From Candidatus Aminicenantales bacterium (GTDB taxonomy: Bacteria; Acidobacteriota; Aminicenantia; Aminicenantales; UBA4085): a stretch of DNA of 64,000 bases. The translations under genes were made by a program, and so were the position numbers. Shown one piece after another: positions 1,177 to 59,188 of the stretch. How positions within the stretch are numbered: position 1 is the stretch's first letter; every line of letters starts with the position of its first letter. The notes beneath the pieces are model-generated. The model was not told the DNA's origin. It searched no databases and was given only the letters and a program-made list of their open reading frames with translations. The stretch covers positions 104,173 to 168,172 of the forward strand of contig JBEKTZ010000008.1 in NCBI GenBank assembly GCA_049515535.1, in the 5' to 3' direction.

Positions 1177-1250
1177 CCCCGGGCTGAAGCCCGGGGTATA
1201 TTCAGGGTTAATACTGAGCGGCGCTTTTACCCCGATTTAAAAATCGGGGG
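1177..1250. terminator. Two tandem GC-rich hairpins between convergent genes (TlpA-like + / fabH -); probable bidirectional terminator region
   Basis: Perfect palindrome CCCCGGGC-tgaa-GCCCGGGG (~1177-1196) and a second hairpin CCCCGATTT-aa-AAATCGGGG (~1230-1249), lying between two convergent stop codons. T-tracts are weak. The first palindrome is also a repeat-family member (see findings). Confidence 0.4.
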
Positions 1251-3704: not shown

Positions 3705-4757
3705 ATGAGAAAGAAAACTTGGGCTGTTTTCATTTTGATTTTTCTCACGAGCTCCGGGACGCTGCTCTTTTCCCAAGGCGGGCTCAACGGCGCCTATCAC
3801 TCCTATCTTGAGCTCGAAGCGGATATGCTGGCGCTCCAGCAGAAATACCCCAATATCGTCAAGGTCTTCGACATCGGCGACAGCGTGGAGAAACGAAATA
3901 TCTATGCCATGAAGATCAGCGACAACGTCGCTGTCGATGAGGACCAGGCCGAAATTCTCCTGCTGGGATGCCATCACGCCCGGGAATGGATCTCGGTCGA
4001 AGTCCCGTTCCTGATAGGAAAATATCTGGCCGAGAATTATGCCGTGAACCCCGACGTCAAACGCCTCGTGGACCAGAGCCAGATCTGGATCGTCCCTCTC
4101 GTCAATCCCGACGGACTGGAATATACGATTCACGTCTATCGCTACTGGCGGAAGAACCGGCGCGATAACGGCAAAGGCGATTTCGGCGTGGACCTCAACC
4201 GGAACTACGGCTATCAATGGGGCGTCGATAACGACGGATCGAGCCCCAATCCCGCCTCCTACGTTTATCGGGGACCGGCGCCGTTTTCCGAGCCGGAGAC
4301 GCAGGCGATCAGGGACCTTTTCCTGAGGAAAAATTTCCGGTCGCTGATTTCGTACCACAGCTTTTCCCAGACGATCATGTATCCCTGGGGCTATACCGAC
4401 AAGCTGGCGCCCGATACAGAGGCGCAAATGAGGGAGATCGCCGCGGCGATGTCGGCGAAGATCCAGTCGGTCAACGGCCGGCTTTACGAATACGGACAGT
4501 CCGGCAAAATCCTGTACGTCACGAACGGGGACGTGACGGATTGGGCCTACGCCATGAGCGGCATTCCAGCCTATACGATCGAAGTCCCGCCCATCGACGA
4601 GATCGGAGGCGGCTTTTTCAATCGGGAAGAAGACATCACCCCGATCCTGCAAGAAAACCTGCCCGCCGCCCTCTATCTCATCGATCGCACCATTCAGGAT
4701 TATCGGCCCCTGACTCAGGCCCCGTTCGATCTGCGCGCTTTGTTCTTCAAGAGATAG
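3705..4757 (+). CDS. Secreted M14 family zinc carboxypeptidase (carboxypeptidase T/A-like)
   Basis: Signal peptide. Zn-binding HxxE (HHAREW), NPDG, DLNRNY and a second His region typical of peptidase M14. Confidence 0.8.
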   Translation: MRKKTWAVFILIFLTSSGTLLFSQGGLNGAYHSYLELEADMLALQQKYPNIVKVFDIGDSVEKRNIYAMKISDNVAVDEDQAEILLLGCHHAREWISVEVPFLIGKYLAENYAVNPDVKRLVDQSQIWIVPLVNPDGLEYTIHVYRYWRKNRRDNGKGDFGVDLNRNYGYQWGVDNDGSSPNPASYVYRGPAPFSEPETQAIRDLFLRKNFRSLISYHSFSQTIMYPWGYTDKLAPDTEAQMREIAAAMSAKIQSVNGRLYEYGQSGKILYVTNGDVTDWAYAMSGIPAYTIEVPPIDEIGGGFFNREEDITPILQENLPAALYLIDRTIQDYRPLTQAPFDLRALFFKR

Positions 4758-6124: not shown

Positions 6125-8400
6125 ACGGCTCAGCGCTCCGGATCACGGTCTTCGGCGTCGTCCAGGGCGTCGGATTCAGGCCCTTCATTTATCGCCTCGC
6201 CGGACGTTTCGGCTACAAAGGCTGGGTCAAAAATGCCGGCCGCGGGGTCGAGATCCACATCGAGACCGAAAGAAAAACCTCCTTTAAAAAATTTCTCGAG
6301 GCGATCACGGCCGAAAAACCTCCTCTGGCCCGGATCGAGAGCTTGACGTCTGAGCGCGCGGGCTTCAAAGGTCATCAGGATTTCACGGTCAAAAAGTCCG
6401 GCAAAGGGAAGCGTTTCGTATTTGTCTCTCCCGATATTTCGACCTGCGCGAACTGCCTCGAGGATATCGCGAACCCCGAGGACCGCCGGTTCCGCTATCC
6501 ATTCACGAACTGCACCGACTGCGGCCCCCGCTACACGATCGTGACGGAGCTGCCGTACGACCGTCCCTCCACGACGATGGCCGGCTTCCCGATGTGCCCG
6601 GACTGTTCCGCCGAGTACGACGATCCCCGCGACAGGCGCTATCACGCCCAGCCGATCGCCTGTCCGCGCTGCGGCCCGTCGGTCCGGCTTCGCGAGGCGA
6701 AAACGGGCCGGGAGATCCCGGGAGGAATCGAGCGGGCTGCCGCGCTCATCGGGCAAGGCAAAATCCTGGCGATCAAAGGGCTCGGCGGATTTCATCTCGT
6801 CTGCGACCCCCTGAATCTCAAGGCCGTCCGCCGGCTGCGTCGGATCAAGGAACGGCGCACAAAGCCTCTGGCCCTCATGGCCCGGGATCTGAGGACCATC
6901 GAGAAATACGCCCCGATCTCGCCCGAAGAGAGAAAATTCCTTCTCTCCGAAAGGCGTCCGATCGTCCTTCTGAAAAAGAAAAGGGACATTCCCGGGATTG
7001 CCCCGAATCTCGACGACATAGGGTTCATGCTTCCTTTTACGCCGTTGCATCATCTTTTGCTCGAGGATATCGAGCTTATCGTGGCGACTAGTTCGAACAT
7101 GAAAGATGCCCCGATCATGAAAGACGAGAACGAAGGCATCCGGAGCCTCTGCGATGCCATCCTCGGCCACGACCGGCCGATCGCGATGAGAGCGGACGAC
7201 TCCGTGCTCAAGATCGTGGACGCGGCGCCGCTTTTTATCCGCAGAGCGCGCGGCTATGTCCCTTATCCGCAGAAGGTTCCGGCGGAGCTCCGCTCCTCCC
7301 GATCCATCCTGGCCTTGGGAGGCGAGCTCAAAGACACGGTCTCCATATATAAAAACGGCTATATCGTCACGAGCCAGTTCCTGGGCGACCTGGATGAATA
7401 CAAAAACCGGATCTATTTCGAAGAGACGATCGCCCATTTGACGAAATTGTTCGACCTCAAGCCGGATTGTGTGGTCACGGACCTCCATCCCGGCTTTCAT
7501 TCGACCCGCCATGCCAAAAAGCTCGGACTTCCCCATCTTCAGGTCCAGCACCATCATGCGCATGTCCTGGCCGGCATGATCGAACATGGGATTTCTCCAG
7601 GAACCAGGGTTCTCGGCGTCGCCTGGGACGGCTTCGGCTACGGCGCCGACGGAACGGCTTGGGGCGGAGAATTTCTTCTGGCCGACTATCTAACCTTCGA
7701 GAGGTTCGCCCATTTCGAGCCCGTCCCTCTGCCCGGCAGAGACCTAGCGGCCAAGCAGCCGTGGCGGATGGCCTTAGCCTATCTCCGTGAAGCCGGGGTT
7801 GTCCGCGTTCCTCGGTTAGGAACTCTCAGAAGCATCAAGGAAAGAAAAATCCGGGGGGTGAAGGCCATGATGGACGGCCGGATCCATTCTCCATTGTCGT
7901 CGAGTTGCGGCCGGTTGTTCGATGCCGTTTCCGCCCTCCTCGGCACCGCCCCGATCGAGAACGAGTTCGAAGCCGAGGCGGCCATGCGGCTGGAAGCAAC
8001 AGCCTCGGGACGCGAGAAAAGGCCCTATCCTTTTCTTATAACTTGCGAAAAAAAGCCCTTTCTGATCTCCTTCGCGGAAACTGTCCGGAGCCTCTTGGCG
8101 GACCTTGAGCGAGGCTTATCGCCGTCCCGGATCTCCGGAAAATTCCACGCCACGCTGGCCCGCGTCATCGTCGAAGTCGCACTGAAGGCGAAGAAGGAAC
8201 ACGGGATCGAAATCGTCGTTCTCAGCGGAGGGGTCTTTCTGAATGCGAAACTGCTTCGGCTCGCCGCCGAAGGATTGAGACAAAGGGGATTGAGAGTTTT
8301 AAGACCCCTTGGTTATTCTCCGAACGATGAATCTCTATCCGTGGGACAGATCGCCCATGCCTTGGCCCGGATGGGAAACAAGCGGACCCTCAAGCGCTAG
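6121..8400 (+). CDS. hypF: [NiFe]-hydrogenase maturation carbamoyltransferase HypF
   Basis: Acylphosphatase domain (VQGVGFRPFIY). Two CxxC-x18-CxxC zinc fingers. YrdC-like and Kae1/YgjD-like domains. Start overlaps the queH stop (ATGA). Confidence 0.9.
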   Translation: MNGSALRITVFGVVQGVGFRPFIYRLAGRFGYKGWVKNAGRGVEIHIETERKTSFKKFLEAITAEKPPLARIESLTSERAGFKGHQDFTVKKSGKGKRFVFVSPDISTCANCLEDIANPEDRRFRYPFTNCTDCGPRYTIVTELPYDRPSTTMAGFPMCPDCSAEYDDPRDRRYHAQPIACPRCGPSVRLREAKTGREIPGGIERAAALIGQGKILAIKGLGGFHLVCDPLNLKAVRRLRRIKERRTKPLALMARDLRTIEKYAPISPEERKFLLSERRPIVLLKKKRDIPGIAPNLDDIGFMLPFTPLHHLLLEDIELIVATSSNMKDAPIMKDENEGIRSLCDAILGHDRPIAMRADDSVLKIVDAAPLFIRRARGYVPYPQKVPAELRSSRSILALGGELKDTVSIYKNGYIVTSQFLGDLDEYKNRIYFEETIAHLTKLFDLKPDCVVTDLHPGFHSTRHAKKLGLPHLQVQHHHAHVLAGMIEHGISPGTRVLGVAWDGFGYGADGTAWGGEFLLADYLTFERFAHFEPVPLPGRDLAAKQPWRMALAYLREAGVVRVPRLGTLRSIKERKIRGVKAMMDGRIHSPLSSSCGRLFDAVSALLGTAPIENEFEAEAAMRLEATASGREKRPYPFLITCEKKPFLISFAETVRSLLADLERGLSPSRISGKFHATLARVIVEVALKAKKEHGIEIVVLSGGVFLNAKLLRLAAEGLRQRGLRVLRPLGYSPNDESLSVGQIAHALARMGNKRTLKR

Positions 8401-9223
8401 CTTCAGGATCGTTCTCCCTGTCTTCGGATCCTTTGTTCCTCATTTCCTTTTCTTGCTCCGGGGCCGGAATCTGCAAATGGAGTTTGAGGCCTCCGATCAG
8501 GGAGAGAATGAAATTCAAGATCACGCCCTTGAGGAAAGCGAGGACGCCGAAAACCAGAAATCCGATCACCCCGCCCGACAACCCGTCTATGAGGGCGCCG
8601 AAGAGCTTGCCCTGGAGATTGGCGAGCGAGGCCGGCAGAAACGTCAGATATTTCGAAAAATATCCCGTGGCTCCGGCAAAAACCCCGGCGACGACTCCGA
8701 TGAGAACGCCCAGGACGCCGCCGAACAGGAACAAAGACGACAGCTGGACCGAGCGCAAGGCAAAGGTTCCTTTTTTTTGGCGGATATTGATGATTTGTCC
8801 TTGGCCGATGGTCCCTGTTTCCCTAAAGATTTCCTTTCCGAAGCCGGTCGTTCTGCAATTCGGGCAAGTCATCAAAGGTTTTTGGAGTTTGGCGCCGCAT
8901 TTGGGACAAGTGGACCGTTCCGAGCCGAAGTTCCCTCCGCAGCGGGCACAGACGGCCGACTCCAGCTTATTTTCGAATCCGCAATAGACGCAGATCGCTT
9001 TCTTCTCCTTCTGCGACGGCGGCTCGGCCTGGATCCAATCCTTTCCGTCGAAGAAATACCACTTGCCCGTCTGGGCCCCGATCATCCAGAAGTGACCTTG
9101 GTCGTCCTTGATCCGCAGCTTTTTCATCTCGTCGATGAACTGCTGGCGGGAAATTTCCCCGGTTTGGAACCTTGCCTTCAGGTTGTTGAAGGCTTCGATG
9201 ACGCCGATGAACGAGTTTTCCAT
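8390..9223 (-). CDS. Double zinc-ribbon domain membrane protein (hypothetical)
   Basis: Two CxxC...CxxC ribbons (CVYCG...CARCG and CPKCG...CPNCR). Gly-zipper-rich C-terminal TM region. ATG at 9223 with GAAGGAGAGGGG upstream. Confidence 0.55.
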   Translation of the reverse strand: MENSFIGVIEAFNNLKARFQTGEISRQQFIDEMKKLRIKDDQGHFWMIGAQTGKWYFFDGKDWIQAEPPSQKEKKAICVYCGFENKLESAVCARCGGNFGSERSTCPKCGAKLQKPLMTCPNCRTTGFGKEIFRETGTIGQGQIINIRQKKGTFALRSVQLSSLFLFGGVLGVLIGVVAGVFAGATGYFSKYLTFLPASLANLQGKLFGALIDGLSGGVIGFLVFGVLAFLKGVILNFILSLIGGLKLHLQIPAPEQEKEMRNKGSEDRENDPEASA

Positions 9224-9250
9224 CGTTTTCCCCTCTCCTTCAGGCTCCAT

Positions 9251-9428
9251 ATTTGCAACTCATTTGTTTTCAGCCAATTCACAACTTGTTCATTATAATA
9301 AAGTTATGTGACGTGACGAAATTTTGTGCAAACTGTCGTATCTTCAACAATTTTCGTCAATTTAGCGTTAGGACGGTCCGCTTATCCACACTTTTTCCAC
9401 AGAATTTGTGAATAACTTTCTCTCGCAT
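9251..9428 (-). promoter_or_regulatory. AT-rich (~35% GC) promoter island upstream of the zinc-ribbon gene, containing TATAAT and TTGACG hexamers on the minus strand
   Basis: Sharp local GC drop. Hexamers are read on the reverse complement. It lies between the M50 protease stop and the zinc-ribbon start. Confidence 0.35.
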
Positions 9429-10439
9429 TCATGGCCATAATTGCTTTATGATGTCGATCACATTATACCCTTGGACGGGGTCGGGAATAAAGGACAGAAT
9501 GAAAATAACGAGCGCCAGACCGCCCATGATCTTTCTCCTCGTTCCCAAAGGCATCTCGGCGTCCCAAGTCGGAGGATGTTTCAGGCCGATGAGCAGGATA
9601 GCCGCGGCCCAAACGAGCCAGCCGGCCCAGAACAAGACGCCCAGGACCACGAAGACGCCCAAAAAAATACGGCCGACGGATTTTGACCGCGGACCGAGTA
9701 TCGCGTAAGCGATATGTCCGCCGTCGAGCTGGCCGATGGGAAAAAGGTTCATCGCCGTGACGAGAAGGCCGGCCCATCCGGCGAAGACGAGAGGATGATA
9801 GACGATAGCTTTACCCGGTTCCAGGCTCCCGAAACGAAAAGCCGCCAGGACTTTGAGAAAAAGAGGATCGCCCAGGAAAAGGGTTCCTTCCCTGGACAAA
9901 AGGTATACGGAGTTTTTCGAAGTCAGGAAAAGCCCGGCGACGAGCGTCGGAACCGACAGGACAAAGCTCATCAAGGGCCCGGCGATGCCGACGTCGAAGA
10001 GCTCGCGTTTTCGGGTGATCGGCGACTTGATCCTGATGAACGCGCCCATGGTCCCCAGGAGCGTGGGCGCGGGAATGAAATAAGGAAGAGTGGCCTTGAG
10101 GTGATAGCGGCGGCAGGTTAGATAGTGACCCATCTCATGCCCGAGCAGGATCAGAATGAGGGCCAAGGTGAAAAGCGCGCTCAGGAAGATGATCTGAGGA
10201 TCCTTGAACATCCCGGCATCCATCGCGAGATTCGGATCCCGGCTGATCTCTTCGGCATACTTATAGTTGGCGCTCCAACTCAGGCCGACGAAGAAAATCG
10301 ATAAGGCCGTCAGGACAAAAAGTGAGACGTTCAGCCAGGCCCGGTTCTTCCCAAAGAGCCAGGAAGTCCGCGGCACCTGAGACTGCGGCGCCTGAGGCCC
10401 CGGCGCCTCCAGTCCTCCGTCGATCCGATTCTCGTCCAT
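9429..10439 (-). CDS. M50 family (site-2 protease-like) membrane metalloprotease
   Basis: HEMGHY (HExxH) within a TM helix. Multiple TM segments. Start at MDENR, preceded by a hairpin terminator of the upstream ferredoxin gene. Confidence 0.7.
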   Translation of the reverse strand: MDENRIDGGLEAPGPQAPQSQVPRTSWLFGKNRAWLNVSLFVLTALSIFFVGLSWSANYKYAEEISRDPNLAMDAGMFKDPQIIFLSALFTLALILILLGHEMGHYLTCRRYHLKATLPYFIPAPTLLGTMGAFIRIKSPITRKRELFDVGIAGPLMSFVLSVPTLVAGLFLTSKNSVYLLSREGTLFLGDPLFLKVLAAFRFGSLEPGKAIVYHPLVFAGWAGLLVTAMNLFPIGQLDGGHIAYAILGPRSKSVGRIFLGVFVVLGVLFWAGWLVWAAAILLIGLKHPPTWDAEMPLGTRRKIMGGLALVIFILSFIPDPVQGYNVIDIIKQLWP

Positions 10440-11476: not shown

Positions 11477-11589
11477 GGCGCTTTCCTTTCCTTGAAGGCC
11501 GAGTCCGGATGCGGCCTATTTTTTATCATATTCCCTTTGAAAAGCCAAGAGCGGCTGAAACCCCCGGACGCAAAACGCGGCGTCGAGGC

Positions 11590-12204: not shown

Positions 12205-14508
12205 ATGAAAAAGACTCTTCTTTCCATTTTCTTCCTCGCTTTTCTGGGGATGGCGGCGAGTCCGTGCGCCGCCGAGATCCGGCCTCAGCCGTCGTCCCAT
12301 GATCTCGTTTTTCGCTCGCCGGCCAAGACCTGGGACGAAGCCGTCCCCCTGGGCAACGGAATGGTCGGAGCTCTAGTCTGGCAGAAGGGGGCGAAGCTGC
12401 GGTTATCGCTCGACCGGGCCGATCTTTGGGATCTGCGCCCCGTACCGAATTTGAGCGCACCTGAATGGAAATTCCGCTGGGTGGTCGAGCAGTGGAAGAA
12501 GAACGACTACAAGCCCGTCCAGGACAAGTTCGATAAACCTTATGACGCCGATCCCGCGCCCTCGAAAATCCCGGCAGGCGCCCTGGAATTCGATCTCGCC
12601 GCTTTCGGTTCTCCGGAAAGCGTCCGGCTGTTCGTCAGCGAAGCCGTTTGTCGCATCCAATGGCCGGGAGGAGAGTCGCTCGAGACGTTTGTCCACGCGA
12701 CCAAACCCATGGGCTGGTTCCGGATCAAGGGCGCCGGGAAGGATATTGCGCCCAATCTGATCATGCCTCTCTACCAGGCTGCCGAAGACGGCGGCGACTT
12801 AAATCCCGTCACGGGTCAAGGCCTGAGAAGATTGGGTTATGAACAGGGGCGGGTCCGGCCGGCCGCCGACCTCCTGACCTATCATCAAAAAGGATGGGGC
12901 GAATTCTATTACGACATCGCCGTCGCCTGGAAGCGGAGCGGGGCGGGCGATATCGAAGGCGTCTGGAGCATCAGCTCGAAATTTTCGGACGATAAAAAAG
13001 AATCGTCCGCGGAAGCCATCGTCAGGTCCGAGCTCGCCCGGGGATTCTCCGTGAATTTCGACGAACACGCCGCGTGGTGGAGGAATTTCTGGTCCCGTTC
13101 TTCCGTAACCGTGCCGGACGATGTCCTCGAAAAGCAATGGGTCCTCGAACAATATAAATTCGGCTCCGCCGCCCGGCGCGGCGCGCCCCCCATTTCCCTG
13201 CAGGCCGTCTGGACCGCCGACAACGGAAAGCTCCCTCCATGGAAAGGCGATTTCCATCACGACCTGAACACGCAGCTCAGCTATTGGCCCTGTTACTCCG
13301 CCAATCATCTCGAGGAAGGGCTGGGCTTTCTGGATTGGCTCTGGGAGCTGCGGCCCGTATTCAAGAAGTACACGAAAGCCTATTTTGAAACAAACGGATT
13401 GAACGTTCCCGGCGTCTCGACGCTCGCCGGCGAACCGATGGGCGGCTGGATCCAGTATTCGTTCGGCCCCACGGTCGGAGCGTGGCTGGCCCAGCATTTC
13501 TACCTGCACTGGCGCTACAGCATGGACCGGAAGTTCCTCGAGGACCGGGCCTATCCCTGGATCATGGATGTCGCCGTGCATCTCGACGAATTATCGCGGC
13601 GCGACGAGCGCGGCCGGCGCAGGCTCCCGGCGAGCTCAAGCCCGGAGATCTTCGATAACAGCGCGAAGGCCTGGTTCGCCGAGACCACGAACTTCGACCT
13701 GGCCCTCATCAAATGGACATTCCAGACGGCGGCCGAACTGGCCGCGGAACTCGGCCGGACGGGAGAGGCGAAAAAATGGAAGACGATTCTCGGCGAATGG
13801 CCCGATTTCGCCGTGGATCCGAAGCTCGGCTTGATGTTCGCTCCGGGCGTTCCCTACGCCGAATCTCACCGCCATTTTTCCCATCTTATGGCCTTCCATC
13901 CCTTCGGCCTCATCGATTGGTCGCACGGCCCGAGCGACCAAGCGGTCATCAAAAACACCCTCGCCACGCTCGACAAGATCGGTCCGGATTTGTGGTGCGG
14001 CTACTCGTACAGCTGGCTGGGGAACTTGAAGGCCCGGGCCTTCGACGGCGACGGGGCGGCCCAGGCGCTCAAGATCTTCGCCGCCTGTTTCTGCCTCCCC
14101 AACAGCTTTCACGTCAACGGCGACCAGTCCGGCACGGGCAAATCGAAATTCACGTACCGGCCGTTCACGCTCGAGGGCAATTTTGCCTTCGCGGCCGGCC
14201 TCCAGGAAATGCTCCTCCAAAGCCACACCGGCGTCATCCACCTCTTCCCCGCTGTTCCGGATTCATGGAAAGATATATCGTTCAACGACCTCCGGGCCCA
14301 GGGAGCGTTCCTCGTCTCGGCCAAGAAGACGAACGGCCAGGTGATGGAAGTCCGCATCGTTTCGGAGAAAGGCGGCAAACTGAAGCTCCTGAACCCCTTC
14401 GAGTTCGCCTTCACAGTCGACGGACTCTGGCGGCGTCCCAGCGAAAAGCTCATCGAGCTCGAGACCCGACCGGGCCAGGAGATCCGTCTCGAAGCCCATG
14501 ACGAATGA
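12205..14508 (+). CDS. Secreted six-hairpin glycoside hydrolase, GH95-like (alpha-L-fucosidase family architecture)
   Basis: Signal peptide. ~770 aa. The segment HHDLNTQLSYWP resembles the GH95 N-x-N-T-Q-M-N-YWP catalytic region. Assignment is by motif only. Confidence 0.55.
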   Translation: MKKTLLSIFFLAFLGMAASPCAAEIRPQPSSHDLVFRSPAKTWDEAVPLGNGMVGALVWQKGAKLRLSLDRADLWDLRPVPNLSAPEWKFRWVVEQWKKNDYKPVQDKFDKPYDADPAPSKIPAGALEFDLAAFGSPESVRLFVSEAVCRIQWPGGESLETFVHATKPMGWFRIKGAGKDIAPNLIMPLYQAAEDGGDLNPVTGQGLRRLGYEQGRVRPAADLLTYHQKGWGEFYYDIAVAWKRSGAGDIEGVWSISSKFSDDKKESSAEAIVRSELARGFSVNFDEHAAWWRNFWSRSSVTVPDDVLEKQWVLEQYKFGSAARRGAPPISLQAVWTADNGKLPPWKGDFHHDLNTQLSYWPCYSANHLEEGLGFLDWLWELRPVFKKYTKAYFETNGLNVPGVSTLAGEPMGGWIQYSFGPTVGAWLAQHFYLHWRYSMDRKFLEDRAYPWIMDVAVHLDELSRRDERGRRRLPASSSPEIFDNSAKAWFAETTNFDLALIKWTFQTAAELAAELGRTGEAKKWKTILGEWPDFAVDPKLGLMFAPGVPYAESHRHFSHLMAFHPFGLIDWSHGPSDQAVIKNTLATLDKIGPDLWCGYSYSWLGNLKARAFDGDGAAQALKIFAACFCLPNSFHVNGDQSGTGKSKFTYRPFTLEGNFAFAAGLQEMLLQSHTGVIHLFPAVPDSWKDISFNDLRAQGAFLVSAKKTNGQVMEVRIVSEKGGKLKLLNPFEFAFTVDGLWRRPSEKLIELETRPGQEIRLEAHDE

Positions 14509-14511
14509 TAA

Positions 14512-14818
14512 GCGGGCGCCGTGTTTTTGCGCCACCGGCCGACAGCCAGCGAGGACTATTTGGCGAAAAAACCGTCCGGGGGGGGTGAGCGGGCACGGCC
14601 CTGCTTCGCCTAACGAAGCAGGGAGCGAGCCGACGCCAGAGCCGGTTTCCTCGCCACCGCTCAATCCCCAGCGAGGACTATTTGGCGAAAAAACCGTCCG
14701 AGGGGTGAGCGAGCACGGTCCCGCTGCGCGAACGCGGCGGGGAGCGAACCCCGAGGCCGAGCCGCGCACGCGCTCGCCGGGCGCGCGGGCGGCGTGTTTT
14801 TTCGCCAAATAGTCCGAG
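14512..14818. repeat. Intergenic repeat block: ~2.5 copies of a ~130-155-bp unit. The complete copy is bounded by 20-nt terminal inverted repeats (GGACTATTTGGCGAAAAAAC ... GTTTTTTCGCCAAATAGTCC)
   Basis: Direct repeats begin at ~14549 and ~14671 (CAGCGAGGACTATTTGGCGAAAAAACCGTCCG...GTGAGCG.GCACGG). The inner hairpins differ but keep their pairing. A partial right end (CGCCGTGTTTTTGCGCC) sits at ~14516. Confidence 0.6.
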
Positions 14819-14884
14819 CGTTTCTTGACTTGCTCCAACCCAAATGATAGAAAGACATTTCCCGCATTCTTCAAGGAGGTTCGC

Positions 14885-17551
14885 ATGACAAAAGGACTGA
14901 AAAACCTGATGTTCGGATCGCTGGCCTTTCTTGTCGTAGCCGGATTCCTCGCCGCCCAGACGACGCCCGAGGCGTTCCTGGGCTTCAAGGTCGGCGCGGA
15001 CCGGAAGCTCGCCGATTACAACCAGATCAAGGCTTACTTCGAAAAACTCTCTCAAGAAGCGCCGAAAAAGCTCAAGCTCCTGACCATCGGCGAAAGCACG
15101 ATGAAAAAGCCCATGATCATGGCCGTGATCACCTCGGAAGAGAACATGGCCAAGCTCGACGCTTATCGCGAGATCATCAAGAAATTGCGCGACCCGCGAA
15201 CGCTGTCCGTCGAAGACGCCAGGAAACTGGCCAAGGAAGGCAAGGCGATCGTCCTGATCACCTGCAGCCTCCACTCCACGGAGATCGCCGCGTCGCAGAT
15301 GTCCATGGAGCTGGCCTATGACCTGGTCACGGGCAAGACACCGTTCGACGCCAAAAAGGTCTTAAGCGACGTCATCGTCCTGCTCTGTCCGACGCACAAC
15401 CCGGACGGCATCCAGATGGTCGTGGACTGGTACAAAAAATACTTGGGAACCAAATACGAAAGCGGCAGCATGCCCTTCCTCTATCATTATTACGCCGGCC
15501 ACGACGACAACCGCGATTACTACATGATCAACCTCGCCGAAACCAAGGCAATCACCAAGGTCCTTTATTACGACTGGCTGCCCCAGGTCCACATCGACGA
15601 ACATCAGCAAGGTTCCAACGGCGCCCGGCTCTTCATCCCGCCGCTGATGGACCCGCCGCTTCCCAACATCCAGCCGCTCGTCTGGCGGACGGTCAACCTC
15701 ATGGGAACGGCTATGGCCTACGACCTGCAAAAGAACGGGATGAGCGGCGTCGTCAACGGCCGGAGCTATACCGGCTGGTACATCGGCGCCTGCGACGACA
15801 CACCCTGGCTGCACAATGTCATCGGCATCCTGAGCGAGGCGGCTTCGGTCCGCCTGGCCACTCCCATCTACATCGAGCCGACCGAGATCCCGAAATCTTT
15901 CAACGAAAAAATGATGGATTTCGTCGATCCCTGGCCGGGCGGCTGGTGGCGCCTGCGGGACATCGTCGACTACGAGCTCGTCCTGTCCCAGAGCCTGGTC
16001 AAGACCGCCGCGCTCAACAAGGAAGACCTTCTCTTCAATTTCTATATGATGAACAAGACCGCGGTCGAGAAAGTGGACAAGAACCAGCCCTACGCCTTCG
16101 TCATCTCCGCGAAACAACACGATTACCCGACCATGCTCAAGATGATCGACGTCCTGCAGCTGGGCGGCATCGAGATCTATCAGGCCAAGGCCGATTTCAT
16201 CGCCGGCGATAAATACTATCCGGCCGGCTCCTTCGTCGTGAAAATGGCCCAGCCCTACAAGGCCTACGCCTGGGCGATCCTGGAAAAACAGAAATATCCC
16301 GATATGCGGGAATACCCCGGCGGCCCTCCCCAACCGCCTTACGACAATGCCGGCTGGACGCTCCCCATCCAGATGGGCGTCGCCTGCGACCAGGTCAAAG
16401 AACCGTTCGAGGCCAAGCTCGAAAAAATCGACAAGGTTCCCTATCCGCAGGTTCCGGCGGGGCAAGGGAACGGCGCGTATATCGTCCTGGGCTCACAGAT
16501 CAACGCCTCATATCCGATCGTCTTCGCCCTTTTGAAGGACGCCAAAGCCGAAGTCTGGCGAACCAAGGCCAGAATCGCCAAGAAAGACTATGATATTCCG
16601 GCCGGAAGCTTCATCGTCAAGAACGGGCCCGATATCAAAAAAGCGCTCCCCGGCCTTCAGGCCAAATATCACCTTTCCGTCATCGATCTCGACGACGCCG
16701 CGGACATCGCTAAAGCCCCGCTCAAGTTCCACCGCGTCGGTCTCTACCAGTCATGGCGCGGCAACATGGACGAAGGTTGGACCCGGTACATGTTCGACGA
16801 TCTGGGCATTCCCTATACGACCCTCCACAACGACTATTTCAAGGGCACGAAAGAGAAGAAAACGGACATCAAAGCCGACTACGACGTCATCGTTTTCGCC
16901 GACGAGAACGGGGCCATGATCAAATCGGGAACGCGCGGCGCCGGCGGGCCGGGCGGAGCCGGTGGACCGGGCGGAGCCGCGGGCGGCGGGCCGGCCGCAG
17001 CAGCTCAGCGGCCGACGAGCTCGACGACCCCTCCGGAATATGAAGGCGGAATCGGGCAGGAAGGCGTGGACGCGCTGAAAGCGTTCGTCGAGAAAGGCGG
17101 CACGATCGTCCTGCTCAACCAGGCCTGCACCCTGGCTTTCAGTGAATTCGAAATCCCGGCCCGCAATGCCCTCCAGAGCGTGGACCGGACGAAATTCTTC
17201 TGCCCGAGCTCGGTCCTGAAGATCCTCGTGGACAACGAGACGCCAATCGGCTACGGCATGCCCAAGGAAGCCGGGGCGATGTTCGTCAACAGCCTGGCCC
17301 TGGACACGTCCTCGCCCGGCTTCGAATGGGACCGGAAGGTCGTCGCGAGCTATCCCGAGGACGGCGTTCTCATGAGCGGCTGGCTTGTCGGCGAGGACGT
17401 CATCGCCCGCAAAGCAGTGGTCGTGGATACGAAATACAAGGAGGGGCATATCGTCCTCATCGGCATCCGCAGCCAGAACCGCGCCCAGTCCCACGGCACG
17501 TACAAGTTCCTGCTGAACGGGCTATTGTATCCGGATAAAGAGGAAAAATAA
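14885..17551 (+). CDS. Large secreted M14-like metallocarboxypeptidase domain protein with a Gly-rich linker and a C-terminal domain of unknown function
   Basis: Signal peptide. HxxE (SLHSTE), NPDG and a His-rich region consistent with M14. Linker GTRGAGGPGGAGGPGGAAGGGPAAAA. ATG at 14885 with CAAGGAGG upstream. Confidence 0.6.
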   Translation: MTKGLKNLMFGSLAFLVVAGFLAAQTTPEAFLGFKVGADRKLADYNQIKAYFEKLSQEAPKKLKLLTIGESTMKKPMIMAVITSEENMAKLDAYREIIKKLRDPRTLSVEDARKLAKEGKAIVLITCSLHSTEIAASQMSMELAYDLVTGKTPFDAKKVLSDVIVLLCPTHNPDGIQMVVDWYKKYLGTKYESGSMPFLYHYYAGHDDNRDYYMINLAETKAITKVLYYDWLPQVHIDEHQQGSNGARLFIPPLMDPPLPNIQPLVWRTVNLMGTAMAYDLQKNGMSGVVNGRSYTGWYIGACDDTPWLHNVIGILSEAASVRLATPIYIEPTEIPKSFNEKMMDFVDPWPGGWWRLRDIVDYELVLSQSLVKTAALNKEDLLFNFYMMNKTAVEKVDKNQPYAFVISAKQHDYPTMLKMIDVLQLGGIEIYQAKADFIAGDKYYPAGSFVVKMAQPYKAYAWAILEKQKYPDMREYPGGPPQPPYDNAGWTLPIQMGVACDQVKEPFEAKLEKIDKVPYPQVPAGQGNGAYIVLGSQINASYPIVFALLKDAKAEVWRTKARIAKKDYDIPAGSFIVKNGPDIKKALPGLQAKYHLSVIDLDDAADIAKAPLKFHRVGLYQSWRGNMDEGWTRYMFDDLGIPYTTLHNDYFKGTKEKKTDIKADYDVIVFADENGAMIKSGTRGAGGPGGAGGPGGAAGGGPAAAAQRPTSSTTPPEYEGGIGQEGVDALKAFVEKGGTIVLLNQACTLAFSEFEIPARNALQSVDRTKFFCPSSVLKILVDNETPIGYGMPKEAGAMFVNSLALDTSSPGFEWDRKVVASYPEDGVLMSGWLVGEDVIARKAVVVDTKYKEGHIVLIGIRSQNRAQSHGTYKFLLNGLLYPDKEEK

Positions 17552-20062: not shown

Positions 20063-20123
20063 GGCTGGGGCCCCGGGCTTTGCCCGGGGGTCCACTTCCG
20101 CCGCGAAGGCTCGTCCCTTGACG
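20063..20123. repeat. REP-like GC-rich palindromic element. It is an inverted copy of the element at 54385-54440
   Basis: Its reverse complement reads CAAGGGACGAGCCTTCGCGGCGGAAGTGGACCCCCGGGCAAAGCCCGGGGC, nearly identical to 54385-54440. The core is CCCCGGGC-N4-GCCCGGGG. Confidence 0.5.
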
Positions 20124-32358: not shown

Positions 32359-32474
32359 GATCTTGACCTCGACGGAAGTATCTTAACTTAAATGACGCGC
32401 CCGATAAAGCCCCCACGAGCAGAGAAACGAAGCGGAAACGATTCTCAGGTACCATTTGACGAGCGGCGATTATG

Positions 32475-32642
32475 CCCCGTGGCTTGCCACGGGGAGCCGC
32501 TCGAGAGGAATCCAAGGGGGAGTCGCCCCCTTGGTCGCAGGGCGGGGTTTCATGCCCCGCCCGAGAAGGGGAGGCAGGGCGCACCGTTTTGTACCTAGAG
32601 TACAAAACGGTGCGCCCGTTGGAAGGGGTCTTCCCCTCCAAG
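32475..32642 (+). repeat. Multi-hairpin conserved intergenic element, copy A (candidate structured ncRNA or mosaic REP element)
   Basis: Order of parts: H0 hairpin, CCAAGGGGG-N-CCCCCTTGG, TCGCAG, variable hairpin, CGAGAAGGGGAGGCAGGG, variable hairpin, CCGTTGGAAGGGGTCTTCCCCTCCAAG. The second copy at 58980-59129 has the same order, with different but base-pairing variable hairpins. Confidence 0.4.
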
Positions 32643-32671
32643 TTGACTTTTGGCCCTTTAGGCATTATTAT
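32643..32671 (+). promoter_or_regulatory. sigma70-like promoter (TTGACT, 17-nt spacer, TATTAT) immediately 3' of repeat copy A, driving the small ORF
   Basis: Hexamers are read directly. AAAGGAGGG RBS and the ATG at 32704 follow. Confidence 0.45.
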
Positions 32672-32703: not shown

Positions 32704-32997
32704 ATGAAAGACATCCCGAAAGCCCCGCCATCTAAGCTCTACCATTGGAAGAAGCTTATTGAGACACTCGAAAAAATCGATCCCATCGCCGCCGTTACGA
32801 GCATCACGATGGAGCCAATTTATCCGCCGACGGTCAGGGGCGGCAAGAAATATATTCACGCCGCGAGCGTCGAATTTAGCACGGGGATCCCGTTGTTCAA
32901 AGATTTTCCCAACATCAGGTATTCAGCTCGTTTGTGTCTTGAGCACCAAGACGAGTGCTGGTGGGACATCGTCGCCTGTCCCAATATCAAGATTTAA
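32704..32997 (+). CDS. Small hypothetical protein (97 aa) with a C-terminal Cys/Trp cluster
   Basis: Strong RBS (AAAGGAGGG) and an upstream promoter. Motif CLEHQDECWWDIVAC. No recognisable family. Confidence 0.45.
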   Translation: MKDIPKAPPSKLYHWKKLIETLEKIDPIAAVTSITMEPIYPPTVRGGKKYIHAASVEFSTGIPLFKDFPNIRYSARLCLEHQDECWWDIVACPNIKI

Positions 32998-46749: not shown

Positions 46750-47549
46750 GGGCCTTCGATTTTCAAGCGGCCGGAGATATCGTCTTTTGAAAGCCGGTAG
46801 AGCGCGTCGAAGAAATGCATCTCGAAGCTGCCCGGTCCGCGGGCTTCTATGCCCGCCATTTCGCCGGCGATGCCCATGACCGCCATGGCGTGAGCCGCCG
46901 CGCGCAGAGGCGAAGGGTTGATAGCCGCGAAAGCGCCGGTCAAAGCCGAGGCCGCGCAGCCCATGCCCGTCACGCGCGGCATGAGCGGATGGCCGTTGGC
47001 TACACGAACGACGGCCTCGCCTTGGACAATGACGTCGATGGGACCGCTGACGCTCACGGCGCATCCGAAACTCCGCGACAGGCCTCGGGCGGCTTCAAGC
47101 GCATCCTCGGCGCGGTGCCGGCTGTCCACACCCTTGGTTGCGCGCTCGGCAAAATGAAGCGCCCGGATCTCAGAGGCGTTGCCCCGAAGAATGGTAGGCC
47201 GCCCTTCGTGCAGGATGTGGAGGGCGGTCTCCGTCCGGAACGGCGTGGCTCCGGCGCCGACAGGGTCCAAGACGATGGGGATGCCTTTGGTCCGGGCCGC
47301 CCGCGCGGCCTTGAGCATGGAGGCTACCCAAGACACGCTGAGCGTCCCGATGTTGAGCACAAGCGCGGCCGCCAGATCGACGATGTCCTCGACCTCCTCA
47401 GCCGCCTGGGCCATGACCGGCGAAGCGCCGATCGCGAGCAGGGCGTTGGCGGTCGTATTCATCACGACGTAATTGGTGATGTTGTGGATGAGAGGAGCCT
47501 CTTCACGAATGCGTTCGATGTCCCGCCAGATGCCTTCGAACTCGCTCAT
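46746..47549 (-). CDS. thiM: Hydroxyethylthiazole kinase
   Basis: ThiM family similarity (NITNYVVMNTTANALLAIGASPVM and the Cys-containing ATP region). Confidence 0.85.
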   Translation of the reverse strand: MSEFEGIWRDIERIREEAPLIHNITNYVVMNTTANALLAIGASPVMAQAAEEVEDIVDLAAALVLNIGTLSVSWVASMLKAARAARTKGIPIVLDPVGAGATPFRTETALHILHEGRPTILRGNASEIRALHFAERATKGVDSRHRAEDALEAARGLSRSFGCAVSVSGPIDVIVQGEAVVRVANGHPLMPRVTGMGCAASALTGAFAAINPSPLRAAAHAMAVMGIAGEMAGIEARGPGSFEMHFFDALYRLSKDDISGRLKIEGP

Positions 47550-47705
47550 GGTCGACCCTCCCGAAAGAATTCTTCGGCTTCCCCGGAGCGACGAGCAAGA
47601 GGAATCATTCCCCCCGCGCGCCCGATAAAGTCAAAGGGCGCTTTCCTAAGCTCCCCGTCCCGAAAAAAAGCCCGGCCCGTATCTCCGTGAATGACAACCG
47701 GACGT

Positions 47706-48218
47706 TTATTTCTTCATCTTCGGACAATCTGAGCCCATGGGACAGCCCTCTTCGTTGTGTCCCGCCATGCCGCCCTTGCCCTCTTTCATCTTCGCCGCCC
47801 AGTCCTGGATCTTCTTCACGGTCTCGGGGCTCTTGGCCGAAAGCGTGATCGTCACTCCGTCCTTGGTATTGGTGAATGTCTTCTCGACGTCCTTCATCAT
47901 CATCGGGCAGCTTTCCATCTCGCCCTGTTTCGTCGGCGCACCCTGCATCATCATTCCGCCCATGGGCTTCGCCGCGTCGTTGGGAGTCAAATATTTCTCC
48001 GGGCTCTTGGTGAACTCGGTCTTGCAGCCCTCGCTGCAGAAATAATATTTCGTCCCCTTGTAGTCGGCGGTATATTTAGCCCCGTCGATCTTCACCGACA
48101 TGCCGCAGACCGGGTCTTTGGCCGTTATGGCTCCGGTAGGCTGCTGGGCAATTCCCGTCGCGACGAGGATGAGCGCTGCCGTCAGAAAAATCATCAGCGT
48201 TTTCGAGTTTTTAAGCAT
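47706..48218 (-). CDS. Secreted YHS-domain, Met-rich copper-binding protein (putative periplasmic Cu chaperone)
   Basis: Signal peptide. YHS/TRASH motif (CGMSV...YYFCSEGC). Met-rich tracts (MGGMMMQG, CPMMMKD). Adjacent to copA. GGAGG RBS before the ATG at 48218. Confidence 0.6.
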   Translation of the reverse strand: MLKNSKTLMIFLTAALILVATGIAQQPTGAITAKDPVCGMSVKIDGAKYTADYKGTKYYFCSEGCKTEFTKSPEKYLTPNDAAKPMGGMMMQGAPTKQGEMESCPMMMKDVEKTFTNTKDGVTITLSAKSPETVKKIQDWAAKMKEGKGGMAGHNEEGCPMGSDCPKMKK

Positions 48219-54384: not shown

Positions 54385-54440
54385 AAGGGACGAGCCTTCG
54401 CGGCGGAAGCGGACCCCCGGGCAAAGCCCGGGGCACCGGC
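54385..54440. repeat. REP-like GC-rich palindromic element in the ruvC-ruvA spacer (direct copy of the 20063-20123 element)
   Basis: CAAGGGACGAGCCTTCGCGGCGGAAGCGGACCCCCGGGCAAAGCCCGGGGC. Followed by a further GC-rich hairpin up to ~54500. Confidence 0.5.
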
Positions 54441-58749: not shown

Positions 58750-58979
58750 CCCTCCATATGTGGATATTTCTCTCAACTTATATCGAATCGTCGCCAAGAA
58801 GTAAATCCCCCGCGCATTTTGGACAAAGCCGTCCTTAACCGTAGTACAGTTTCCAAGACGAGTTATATTTCCTATGTCACCAGAGCAAAGGATATGCTGC
58901 TCGGAACCCATCCGAGAGCGAGAGCGGGCATGGTTCGGAAATAAAATTTCCGAGAGCGAGAGAAAGGCCGAGCGGATTT

Positions 58980-59129
58980 GAGGATTTGGGCTCCGGCCCA
59001 AATCCTCGGGGACTCCAAGGGGGCATGCCCCCTTTGGTCGCAGTCCTATGCGGAGCATAGGGCGAGAAGGGGAGGCAGGGACGGCGGGATTTTCCCGCCG
59101 GACCGTTGGAAGGGGTCTTCCCCTCCAAG
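58980..59129 (+). repeat. Multi-hairpin conserved intergenic element, copy B
   Basis: H0 (GAGGATTTGGGC-tccg-GCCCAAATCCTC), then the same conserved linkers as copy A, with compensatory different stems. Preceded by two CCGAGAGCGAGAG direct repeats. Confidence 0.4.
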
Positions 59130-59188
59130 GGCGCGGGTGGGAAAATCCGCGTGGTGACGAGCGGCATATCCTGCGCGAGCCGTCCGGC

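Follow-up and report, generated by a model that had tools for sequence, protein, structure and literature searches.

The DNA analysed here is a single stretch of 64 kb, in the following called the window. In it, a GH95-family glycosidase gene (12205–14508, + strand) is followed by the gene for a large M14-family peptidase (14885–17551, +), both assigned by Pfam, and the spacer between them measures 376 bp. The nearest named homologues of the M14 protein belong to MAGs of Candidatus Aminicenantes/Acidobacteriota. The spacer harbours a block in which a small palindromic repeat of the MITE/REPIN-like kind, without coding function, is present about 2.3 times in tandem, arranged as a remnant (unit 0), a truncated copy (unit 1) and a complete copy (unit 2).

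Tandem units in the GH95–M14 spacer

The block is marked by an exact 20-mer, GGACTATTTGGCGAAAAAAC, present at 14553–14572 (+), 14675–14694 (+) and 14796–14815 (-). The first of these copies is the left-end sequence of unit 1, and the other two are the left and right terminal inverted repeats of unit 2, the right one being the exact reverse complement. They agree at 20 of 20 positions and extend to 24 nt with two mismatches. When the window was shuffled, no match to the 20-mer with up to three mismatches occurred in any shuffle. An exact 33-mer, CCAGCGAGGACTATTTGGCGAAAAAACCGTCCG, is found twice, 122 bp apart. On these counts the 20-nt perfect inverted repeat and the tandem units described in the initial annotation stand. 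The period, given there as ~130 bp, is 122 bp, and the arms of the bounded unit, placed ~150 bp apart, are separated by 101 nt within a complete unit of 141 nt, or 149 nt including the shared GCGA/GAGC flanks.

Unit 0 (14512–14534, +) begins 4 nt past the GH95 stop codon and comprises the 3' arm of hairpin 1, the T run and CGCCA (GCGGGCGCCGTGTTTTTGCGCCA). It is 91% identical to 14785–14807, in agreement with the partial right end that had been noticed ahead of the first copy. A comparison of junctions places a non-repeated CC-N12 stretch (14535–14548, +) between it and unit 1. All three internal junctions, two in the window and one in the copy L008 described below, read CGCCA-CC-N10-12-GCGA-GGACT, and their N10-12 stretches are mutually unrelated. 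Unit 1 (14549–14670, +; 122 nt) is truncated within the loop of hairpin 1. It is a mosaic in which the first 33 nt are those of unit 2 and the core, GAGCGGGCACGG...GAGCCGACGCCAGAGCCGGTTTCCTCGCC, resembles up to the hairpin 1 loop the single unit of the relative L005 (84% over 74 nt), and this mosaic structure shows recombination between copies. Outside the 33-mer, units 1 and 2 are about 80% identical, and their 20-mer ends are 100% identical. Unit 2 (14671–14819, +) is the complete element and consists of GCGA, the left inverted repeat, hairpin 2, hairpin 1, the right inverted repeat and GAGC.

An ORF of 104 aa runs across the block, for which no genuine homologue was found among 1.84 billion protein representatives; two matches were rejected as unrelated tandem-repeat proteins. 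Likewise, a chimeric six-frame translation compared with 5.8 billion proteins gave nothing at E<=0.001.

The Logan short-read contigs of SRR7028477 that carry the flanking genes stop at window position 14575 (position 12371 of L004) and restart at 14793 (position 1 of L003), both points lying inside the repeats, where such breaks are expected. Several independent short-read contigs (L003, L004, L018 and L019, the latter two at their position 1) end about 90–310 bp upstream of the M14 gene.

No further copy of the inverted-repeat unit was found elsewhere in the 64-kb window. Furthermore, the exact 20-mer had no true match in 185,579 GTDB representative genomes (one per species), two hits in Saprospiraceae and Cohnella being due to chance; together with the few loci known, this suggests that there may be few copies and that the family may be narrow. 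In viral contigs the exact 20-mer had 0 matches, and looser patterns (GGCGTGTTTTTTCGCCA and a gapped descriptor of the family, called family A below) returned chance matches only. Plasmid and phage collections held no match to the block. Both the single occurrence in the window and the lack of a true match in the representative genomes would suit a purely local tandem duplication and inversion of an ordinary terminator region, without any dispersal. The initial annotation had kept this reading for the case that the unit be absent elsewhere in the genome and have neither transcript nor structure support; the 20-mer search in metagenomes speaks against it.

Copies at other loci and variable spacers

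An exact scan of JGI metagenomes with the 20-mer returned five hits, two of which, L008 and L011, are true, while L009, L010 and L012 were rejected as chance matches in AT-rich coding DNA. In L008 (Ga0315278), which stems from a sister population of Aminicenantes, the unit at 896–1046 runs on the strand opposite to window 14671–14819, to which it is 93.4% identical over 151 nt, and a second, partial unit comes after it. This site, with a CitMHS-like transporter on one side and a small membrane ORF/GH29 fucosidase on the other, is unrelated to the window locus, and the window holds no homologue of the transporter. L011, from an independent sample, has the same junction as L008 but only the first 54 nt of the unit. 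Dispersal of the unit is thus shown by a 93%-identical copy at an unrelated locus. Since this copy is found in two independent assemblies and members of the family exist at further loci, we regard a purely local duplication as extremely unlikely. The designation "MITE-like" in the initial annotation is substantiated by the same copies and by the differences between orthologous spacers.

These differences are considerable. In L013, which shares 98% of amino acids with L011, the unit is absent and only CCGAGCCC is present beside the -35 hexamer, and the orthologous transporter spacers of L014–L016 (87% aa) contain nothing of the unit. At the window locus itself, no relative is closer than L005 (M14 95% identical in amino acids, flanks ~94% in nucleotides), which comes from the metagenome that also yielded L008. 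Its spacer of 178 bp holds a single unit with both hairpins and the linker motifs, without the 20-mer and without a T run. A third locus lies between TPR and flavodoxin genes in L006 (4790–4935), an 83%-identity relative, and carries a unit without the inverted repeat; the orthologous spacer of the window (11477–11589) is empty. Hence, orthologous spacers of populations whose flanking genes are 90–97% identical differ in the presence and form of the unit. The genes around the units change far more slowly than the unit content, and units that are nearly identical stand at unrelated sites. As the mosaicism shows, part of this polymorphism could be explained by recombination between copies rather than by transposition.

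Counting all copies, the inverted-repeat form is known from two unrelated loci (the window and L008/L011) and the wider family from about four loci in ~200 kb of related DNA, in which nhmmer and blastn searches with the units revealed no loci beyond those reported here. A module of the wider family is also present at window position 58922. Both full copies have the same flanks, GCGA|...|GAGC, which leaves the limits of the element ambiguous, and no target-site duplication was established.

From the copies a common architecture was derived. Read in the + sense of the window, it begins with GCGA-GGACTATTTGGCGAAAAAAC in the inverted-repeat form, followed by GAGCGRGCAYGG, hairpin 2, GAGMGANCC with ~7 nt, and GAGCCG-hairpin 1-CGGCGTG, in which the loop of hairpin 1 is TYGCCGG. 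The right end is TTTTTTCGCCAAATAGTCC, or ~18 nt in the forms without the inverted repeat, and then GAGCSC. The linkers are conserved between copies, whereas the hairpin stems are unrelated in sequence and length. Hairpin 2 has 9, 10 or ~18 pairs, the arms of hairpin 1 are GTTTCC, ATTTTCC or CGCACGCGC, and all of these hairpins are stable (-16 to -26 kcal/mol). The inverted-repeat unit is thereby shown to belong to a wider family without the inverted repeat, in which the same linker motifs surround unrelated stems.

Several other rearrangements were seen in the same spacers. In L011, an insert at 3786–3885 is made up of the left inverted repeat together with a degenerate hairpin 1 and a tail rich in A and T, and lies between the two copies of an unusual 12-nt direct repeat, CAAGGGCTCGGA; L013 (1100–1160) has one 12-mer and no insert. 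This is either an unusually long insertion duplication or the result of a deletion between direct repeats. In L006, a gene of the beta-lactamase family (8142–9881) is located between GH95 and M14, and this junction is therefore also a site of gene gain or loss. L017, an 81%-identity relative, has in its GH95–M14 spacer (9700–9792) several hairpins, one of them unrelated and with a perfect ~45-bp stem, and a GC-rich insert in the spacer upstream of the -35 hexamer of the TPR gene (7200–7340). It appears that these spacers have repeatedly received hairpin elements of different kinds.

Fold, a probable terminator and the M14 promoter

Hairpin 2 of unit 1 (14599–14623, +; CCCTGCTTCG/CGAAGCAGGG) has a perfect stem of 10 bp (-17.4 kcal/mol), and that of unit 2 (14720–14741, +; CCCGCTGCG/CGCGGCGGG) has 9 bp including one G.T (-17.2 kcal/mol). 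The internal hairpins therefore differ between the units and still pair, just as the initial annotation had it. Hairpin 1 of unit 2, GCCGCGCACGCGC-TCGCCGG-GCGCGCGGGCGGC, has its stem at 14761–14793 and is followed by GTG and T6 (14761–14802, +; -24.9 kcal/mol). Checked against shuffled sequences, the block as a whole folds better on both strands, with z = -4.1 for the + strand and z = -2.9 for the - strand. As a single strand, the complete unit is predicted to form a three-way structure, in which the inverted repeats enclose the two GC-rich hairpins.

A comparison of unit 2 with the L008 copy yields 10 differences, and all 55 predicted pairs withstand them. Among the changes are a compensatory exchange of a GC for a CG pair and two of C to U that give G·U. 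Only 4 of the 10 differences fall in paired columns, though 73% of the columns are paired (P = 0.03). In the fold model this pattern speaks for a single-stranded fold that is under selection or within which repair takes place. The structural constraint suspected earlier is thus supported for the two full copies, and it would equally be expected of a transposon that moves as hairpins of single-stranded DNA.

One may ask if the block encodes a structured RNA, either a stabiliser or attenuator in the 3'-UTR read through from GH95 or an sRNA ending at the hairpin 1 terminator. Its strong fold, its terminator-like 3' end and the compensatory and G.U-compatible changes on the + strand of the full copies would agree with this, as does the better folding of that strand there (-94.6 vs -82.5 and -87.6 vs -78.7 kcal/mol). 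It is the - strand, however, that folds better in units lacking the inverted repeat, so that the fold is not assignable to RNA over DNA; the evidence on the functional strand, that of the G.U pairs included, conflicts likewise, pointing to + in the full copies and to - in the units without the inverted repeat. Moreover, Rfam has no match in the window at the gathering score and no meaningful one in 14400–14950 even at E<=1, where a single lncRNA match (E = 0.15) is spurious. No promoter-like site precedes any unit, and at L008 the genes on either side of the element are divergent, so that it receives no read-through from an upstream gene. Nor is the element conserved in close relatives, including the 95%-identity relative L005. 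We therefore consider a structured RNA, which the initial annotation had proposed in a long form, quite unlikely.

On the + strand downstream of GH95, the terminator scan finds the pattern of an intrinsic terminator, with the GC-rich stem 14761–14793, GTG and T6, and this is the only terminator-like site between GH95 and M14. Judged by this pattern, hairpin 1 and T6 of unit 2 probably act as the intrinsic terminator of GH95. Between the divergently transcribed genes at L008 a terminator has no obvious use, which fits a selfish element whose local effect is incidental. A further stem of 8 bp, CCCCGGGC...GCCCGGGG, occurs three times in the window (1177–1196, 20071–20089 and 54415–54433), each time near the end of an ORF, and may represent a small REP-like family of terminator hairpins.

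The M14 gene has a promoter-like site of its own, native and outside the element (14825–14853, +). It reads TTGACT-17-TGaTAGAAA, with TTGACT at 14825–14830, a 17-nt spacer and the TG-extended -10 hexamer TAGAAA at 14848–14853, and is followed by a GGAGG ribosome-binding site. A strict consensus scan misses it because position 6 of the -10 hexamer is A. The site is kept in the window, L005, L006, L007, L017 and L019, whether the element is there or not, and is located downstream of the block; the suggestion that the block is an attenuator for the peptidase island is thus not supported.

The 20-nt inverted repeats could also be the recombination sites of an invertible DNA switch that flips a segment of 101 or 223 nt, since perfect inverted repeats surround a short segment just upstream of a gene. 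Such a switch is extremely unlikely here. The segment encloses no promoter-like site, the M14 promoter being located beyond the repeats, neither an invertase nor a recombinase domain is encoded in the window, and the interior is nearly palindromic, so inversion would alter little.

The shared GAGC flank of the element ends 5 nt upstream of the M14 -35 hexamer, and at three unrelated loci the CCGAGC end of the family stands 0–5 nt from a native -35 hexamer, in constant orientation to the downstream gene. CCGAGC is not a general promoter feature, as in the DNA examined it was found in intergenic promoter context only at element-bearing loci. The abutment reflects either a target preference or merely the place where insertions survive.

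It is from this arrangement that a host-selected regulatory cassette might be deduced, in which the three 20-mers and/or the linkers would serve as sites for a regulator or nucleoid protein, or the element as an UP-like promoter module, given that its A/T tracts lie ~20–35 nt upstream of the -35 hexamer. The fixed orientation at three unrelated loci fits this idea, as does the conservation of linkers and not of hairpin stems, and both inverted-repeat loci neighbour fucosidase genes, GH95 in the window and GH29 in L011/L014. Yet the closest relatives either lack the element or have a different form of it, despite conserved promoters and genes, the similarity covers the whole 150 nt including the hairpins and not merely short sites, and no regulator gene is adjacent; besides, where spacers are short, the stretch before the -35 hexamer is simply the one that can tolerate insertions. 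On balance a regulatory cassette appears unlikely.

Relation to known repeats and a possible mode of spread

Bacterial MITEs such as the Correia elements of Neisseria, ERIC and RUP are 100–200 bp long and non-coding, with terminal inverted repeats, and form long hairpins. They reside in intergenic regions beside promoters or terminators, vary between strains and can terminate transcription or alter promoters; elements of this type have defined target-site duplications (e.g. TA) and cognate IS families. The unit described here likewise has terminal inverted repeats, the same ones in L008, a length of 141–149 nt, no coding capacity and a dispersed occurrence at non-homologous sites. In its size, inverted repeats, folding, intergenic site and strain variation it resembles the Correia, ERIC and RUP elements, but differs from them in showing neither a clear target-site duplication nor a parent IS in the window and the fetched loci.

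The BIMEs of enterobacteria are mosaics of REP palindromic units and linker motifs, with conserved palindromes and linkers of few types. Similar to these, the arms TGGCGAAAAAAC and GTTTTTTCGCCA alternate in the block five times in the order R-L-R-L-R, and a modular mosaic with linker motifs is located at the 3' end of a gene. The window family differs from BIMEs in having conserved linkers and hairpin stems that are unrelated between copies.

REPINs are doublets of REP sequences that form hairpins and are mobilised by RAYT tyrosine transposases; they have conserved inverted ends and a less conserved hairpin-forming spacer with compensatory changes, and their tandem clusters consist of units parted by short non-repeated DNA (PMC3116915). 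The same features are found in our element, whose two inverted ends are highly conserved and whose spacer, though less conserved, still forms a hairpin and shows compensatory changes; its site is extragenic. Also as in REPIN clusters, units with flanking sequence are set apart by short non-repeated separators, and decayed or truncated single copies exist beside intact ones. A REP, however, is a short palindrome (20–40 nt) tagged GTAG or CGTC (PMC3733652), whereas the 20-mer GGACTATTTGGCGAAAAAAC is not self-complementary and has neither tag, only ATAG/CTAT. The unit is also longer than a REPIN (141–149 nt vs 70–110), and few copies are seen in place of hundreds. A REPIN system typically comprises tens to hundreds of copies in a genome and a single-copy RAYT gene with the same repeats on its flanks; the window contains no RAYT gene. 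As it lacks the tagged short palindrome, we do not file the element as a REPIN, though it works like one.

From Acidobacteria, tyrosine transposases have been described that are flanked by inverted repeats, which can form repeat families (PMC3733652). These TIR repeats form moderately abundant families, and the TIRYTs include a distinct acidobacterial group (PMC3733652). By their description, the TIR repeats and TIRtrons of TIRYTs share with our element the long terminal inverted repeats, the occurrence in dimers or clusters and the phylum (PMC3733652); a difference is that no known transposase gene is flanked by the inverted repeat found here.

A search for such an enzyme was negative within the DNA at hand. 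Pfam detects no transposase, recombinase or Y1 domain in the ~50 ORFs of the window, which belong to ordinary metabolic genes, and the gene tables of the fetched loci list no transposase of any kind. The window contains no tRNA gene. It does contain, beside thiamine-related genes (TMP-TENI, AIRS), a region of 692 nt without an ORF of at least 100 aa (47065–47756), in which neither a TPP riboswitch nor another Rfam family matches at the gathering score.

Taking all evidence together, we think it likely that the block is a non-autonomous, dispersed palindromic repeat in the form of a small tandem cluster, which locally acts as terminator for GH95 and as insulator. The unit would spread, or have spread, by transposition in trans, with the enzyme presumably encoded elsewhere in the genome. 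Candidates are a tyrosine transposase (Y1, of the RAYT/TIRYT type), with hairpins of single-stranded DNA as its substrate, and a DDE transposase, for which the inverted repeats would be the recognition sites. The likeness to REPINs and the existence of acidobacterial tyrosine transposases flanked by inverted repeats make a Y1 enzyme as plausible as a DDE transposase. The tandem arrangement may have arisen as in the tandem clusters of REPINs, by duplication or by recombination between copies, and unit 1, a mosaic, joins the 5' 33 nt of unit 2 to a core like that of L005. Hairpin 1 and T6 of unit 2 would most likely end GH95 transcription and insulate the M14 promoter a few bases downstream.

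Other hairpin-rich elements of the window were noted as well. A second family, B, is represented at 32455–32645 (+) by five perfect hairpins (z = -8.3), with conserved linkers TTGGTCGCAG, GAAGGGGAGGCAGGG and CCGTTGGAAGGGGTCTTCCCCTCCAAG and variable stems between them. This array ends directly at TTGACT upstream of a small + gene at 32704. Further copies of family B are located at window 59010–59129, at L017 13755–13889 (79.5% over 151 nt, a non-orthologous site) and at L007 376–612. Between a divergent GH109-like gene and a + gene, window 58889–59172 (+) holds an element of ~285 nt, bounded by a 15-nt inverted repeat, AGGATATGCYGCTCG, with ~7 hairpins (z = -7.06) and followed by GAGCC...TTGACA. 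It is a mosaic, with a 5' family-A module (GAGCGGGCATGG-hairpin-GAGCGAGAG) and family-B linkers in its middle.

Three less ordinary traits, namely conserved linkers around hairpins that are unrelated, the close placement next to -35 hexamers and the existence of a second, mosaic family, leave a small chance that families A and B together are a distinct kind of modular element, in which conserved single-stranded linkers frame exchangeable hairpins, an inversion of the REP/BIME principle. Such elements would be directed to the upstream edges of -35 hexamers, or retained there by selection, in fixed orientation. These could be, for instance, promoter-homing transposons of single-stranded DNA, or mobile terminator/insulator cassettes exploited by the host to separate densely packed transcription units.

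What is present is a previously undescribed repeat family, of a well-known selfish intergenic kind, in an uncultured lineage of Aminicenantes (Acidobacteriota). Small palindromic repeats are hardly described in these uncultured bacteria, and a literature search yielded no paper in which Aminicenantes and inverted repeats are mentioned together. In short-read assemblies of these genomes, such elements cause breaks precisely in the intergenic spacers; they also alter the content of spacers between populations whose genes are ~94% identical, and can bring ready-made terminators next to promoters. On present evidence the element is of an ordinary kind, and its host lineage is what is new. Should the placement at -35 hexamers and the pattern of conserved linkers and variable hairpins prove true across whole genomes, the family would lend itself as a model for the way in which mobile hairpins shape the boundaries of transcription units.
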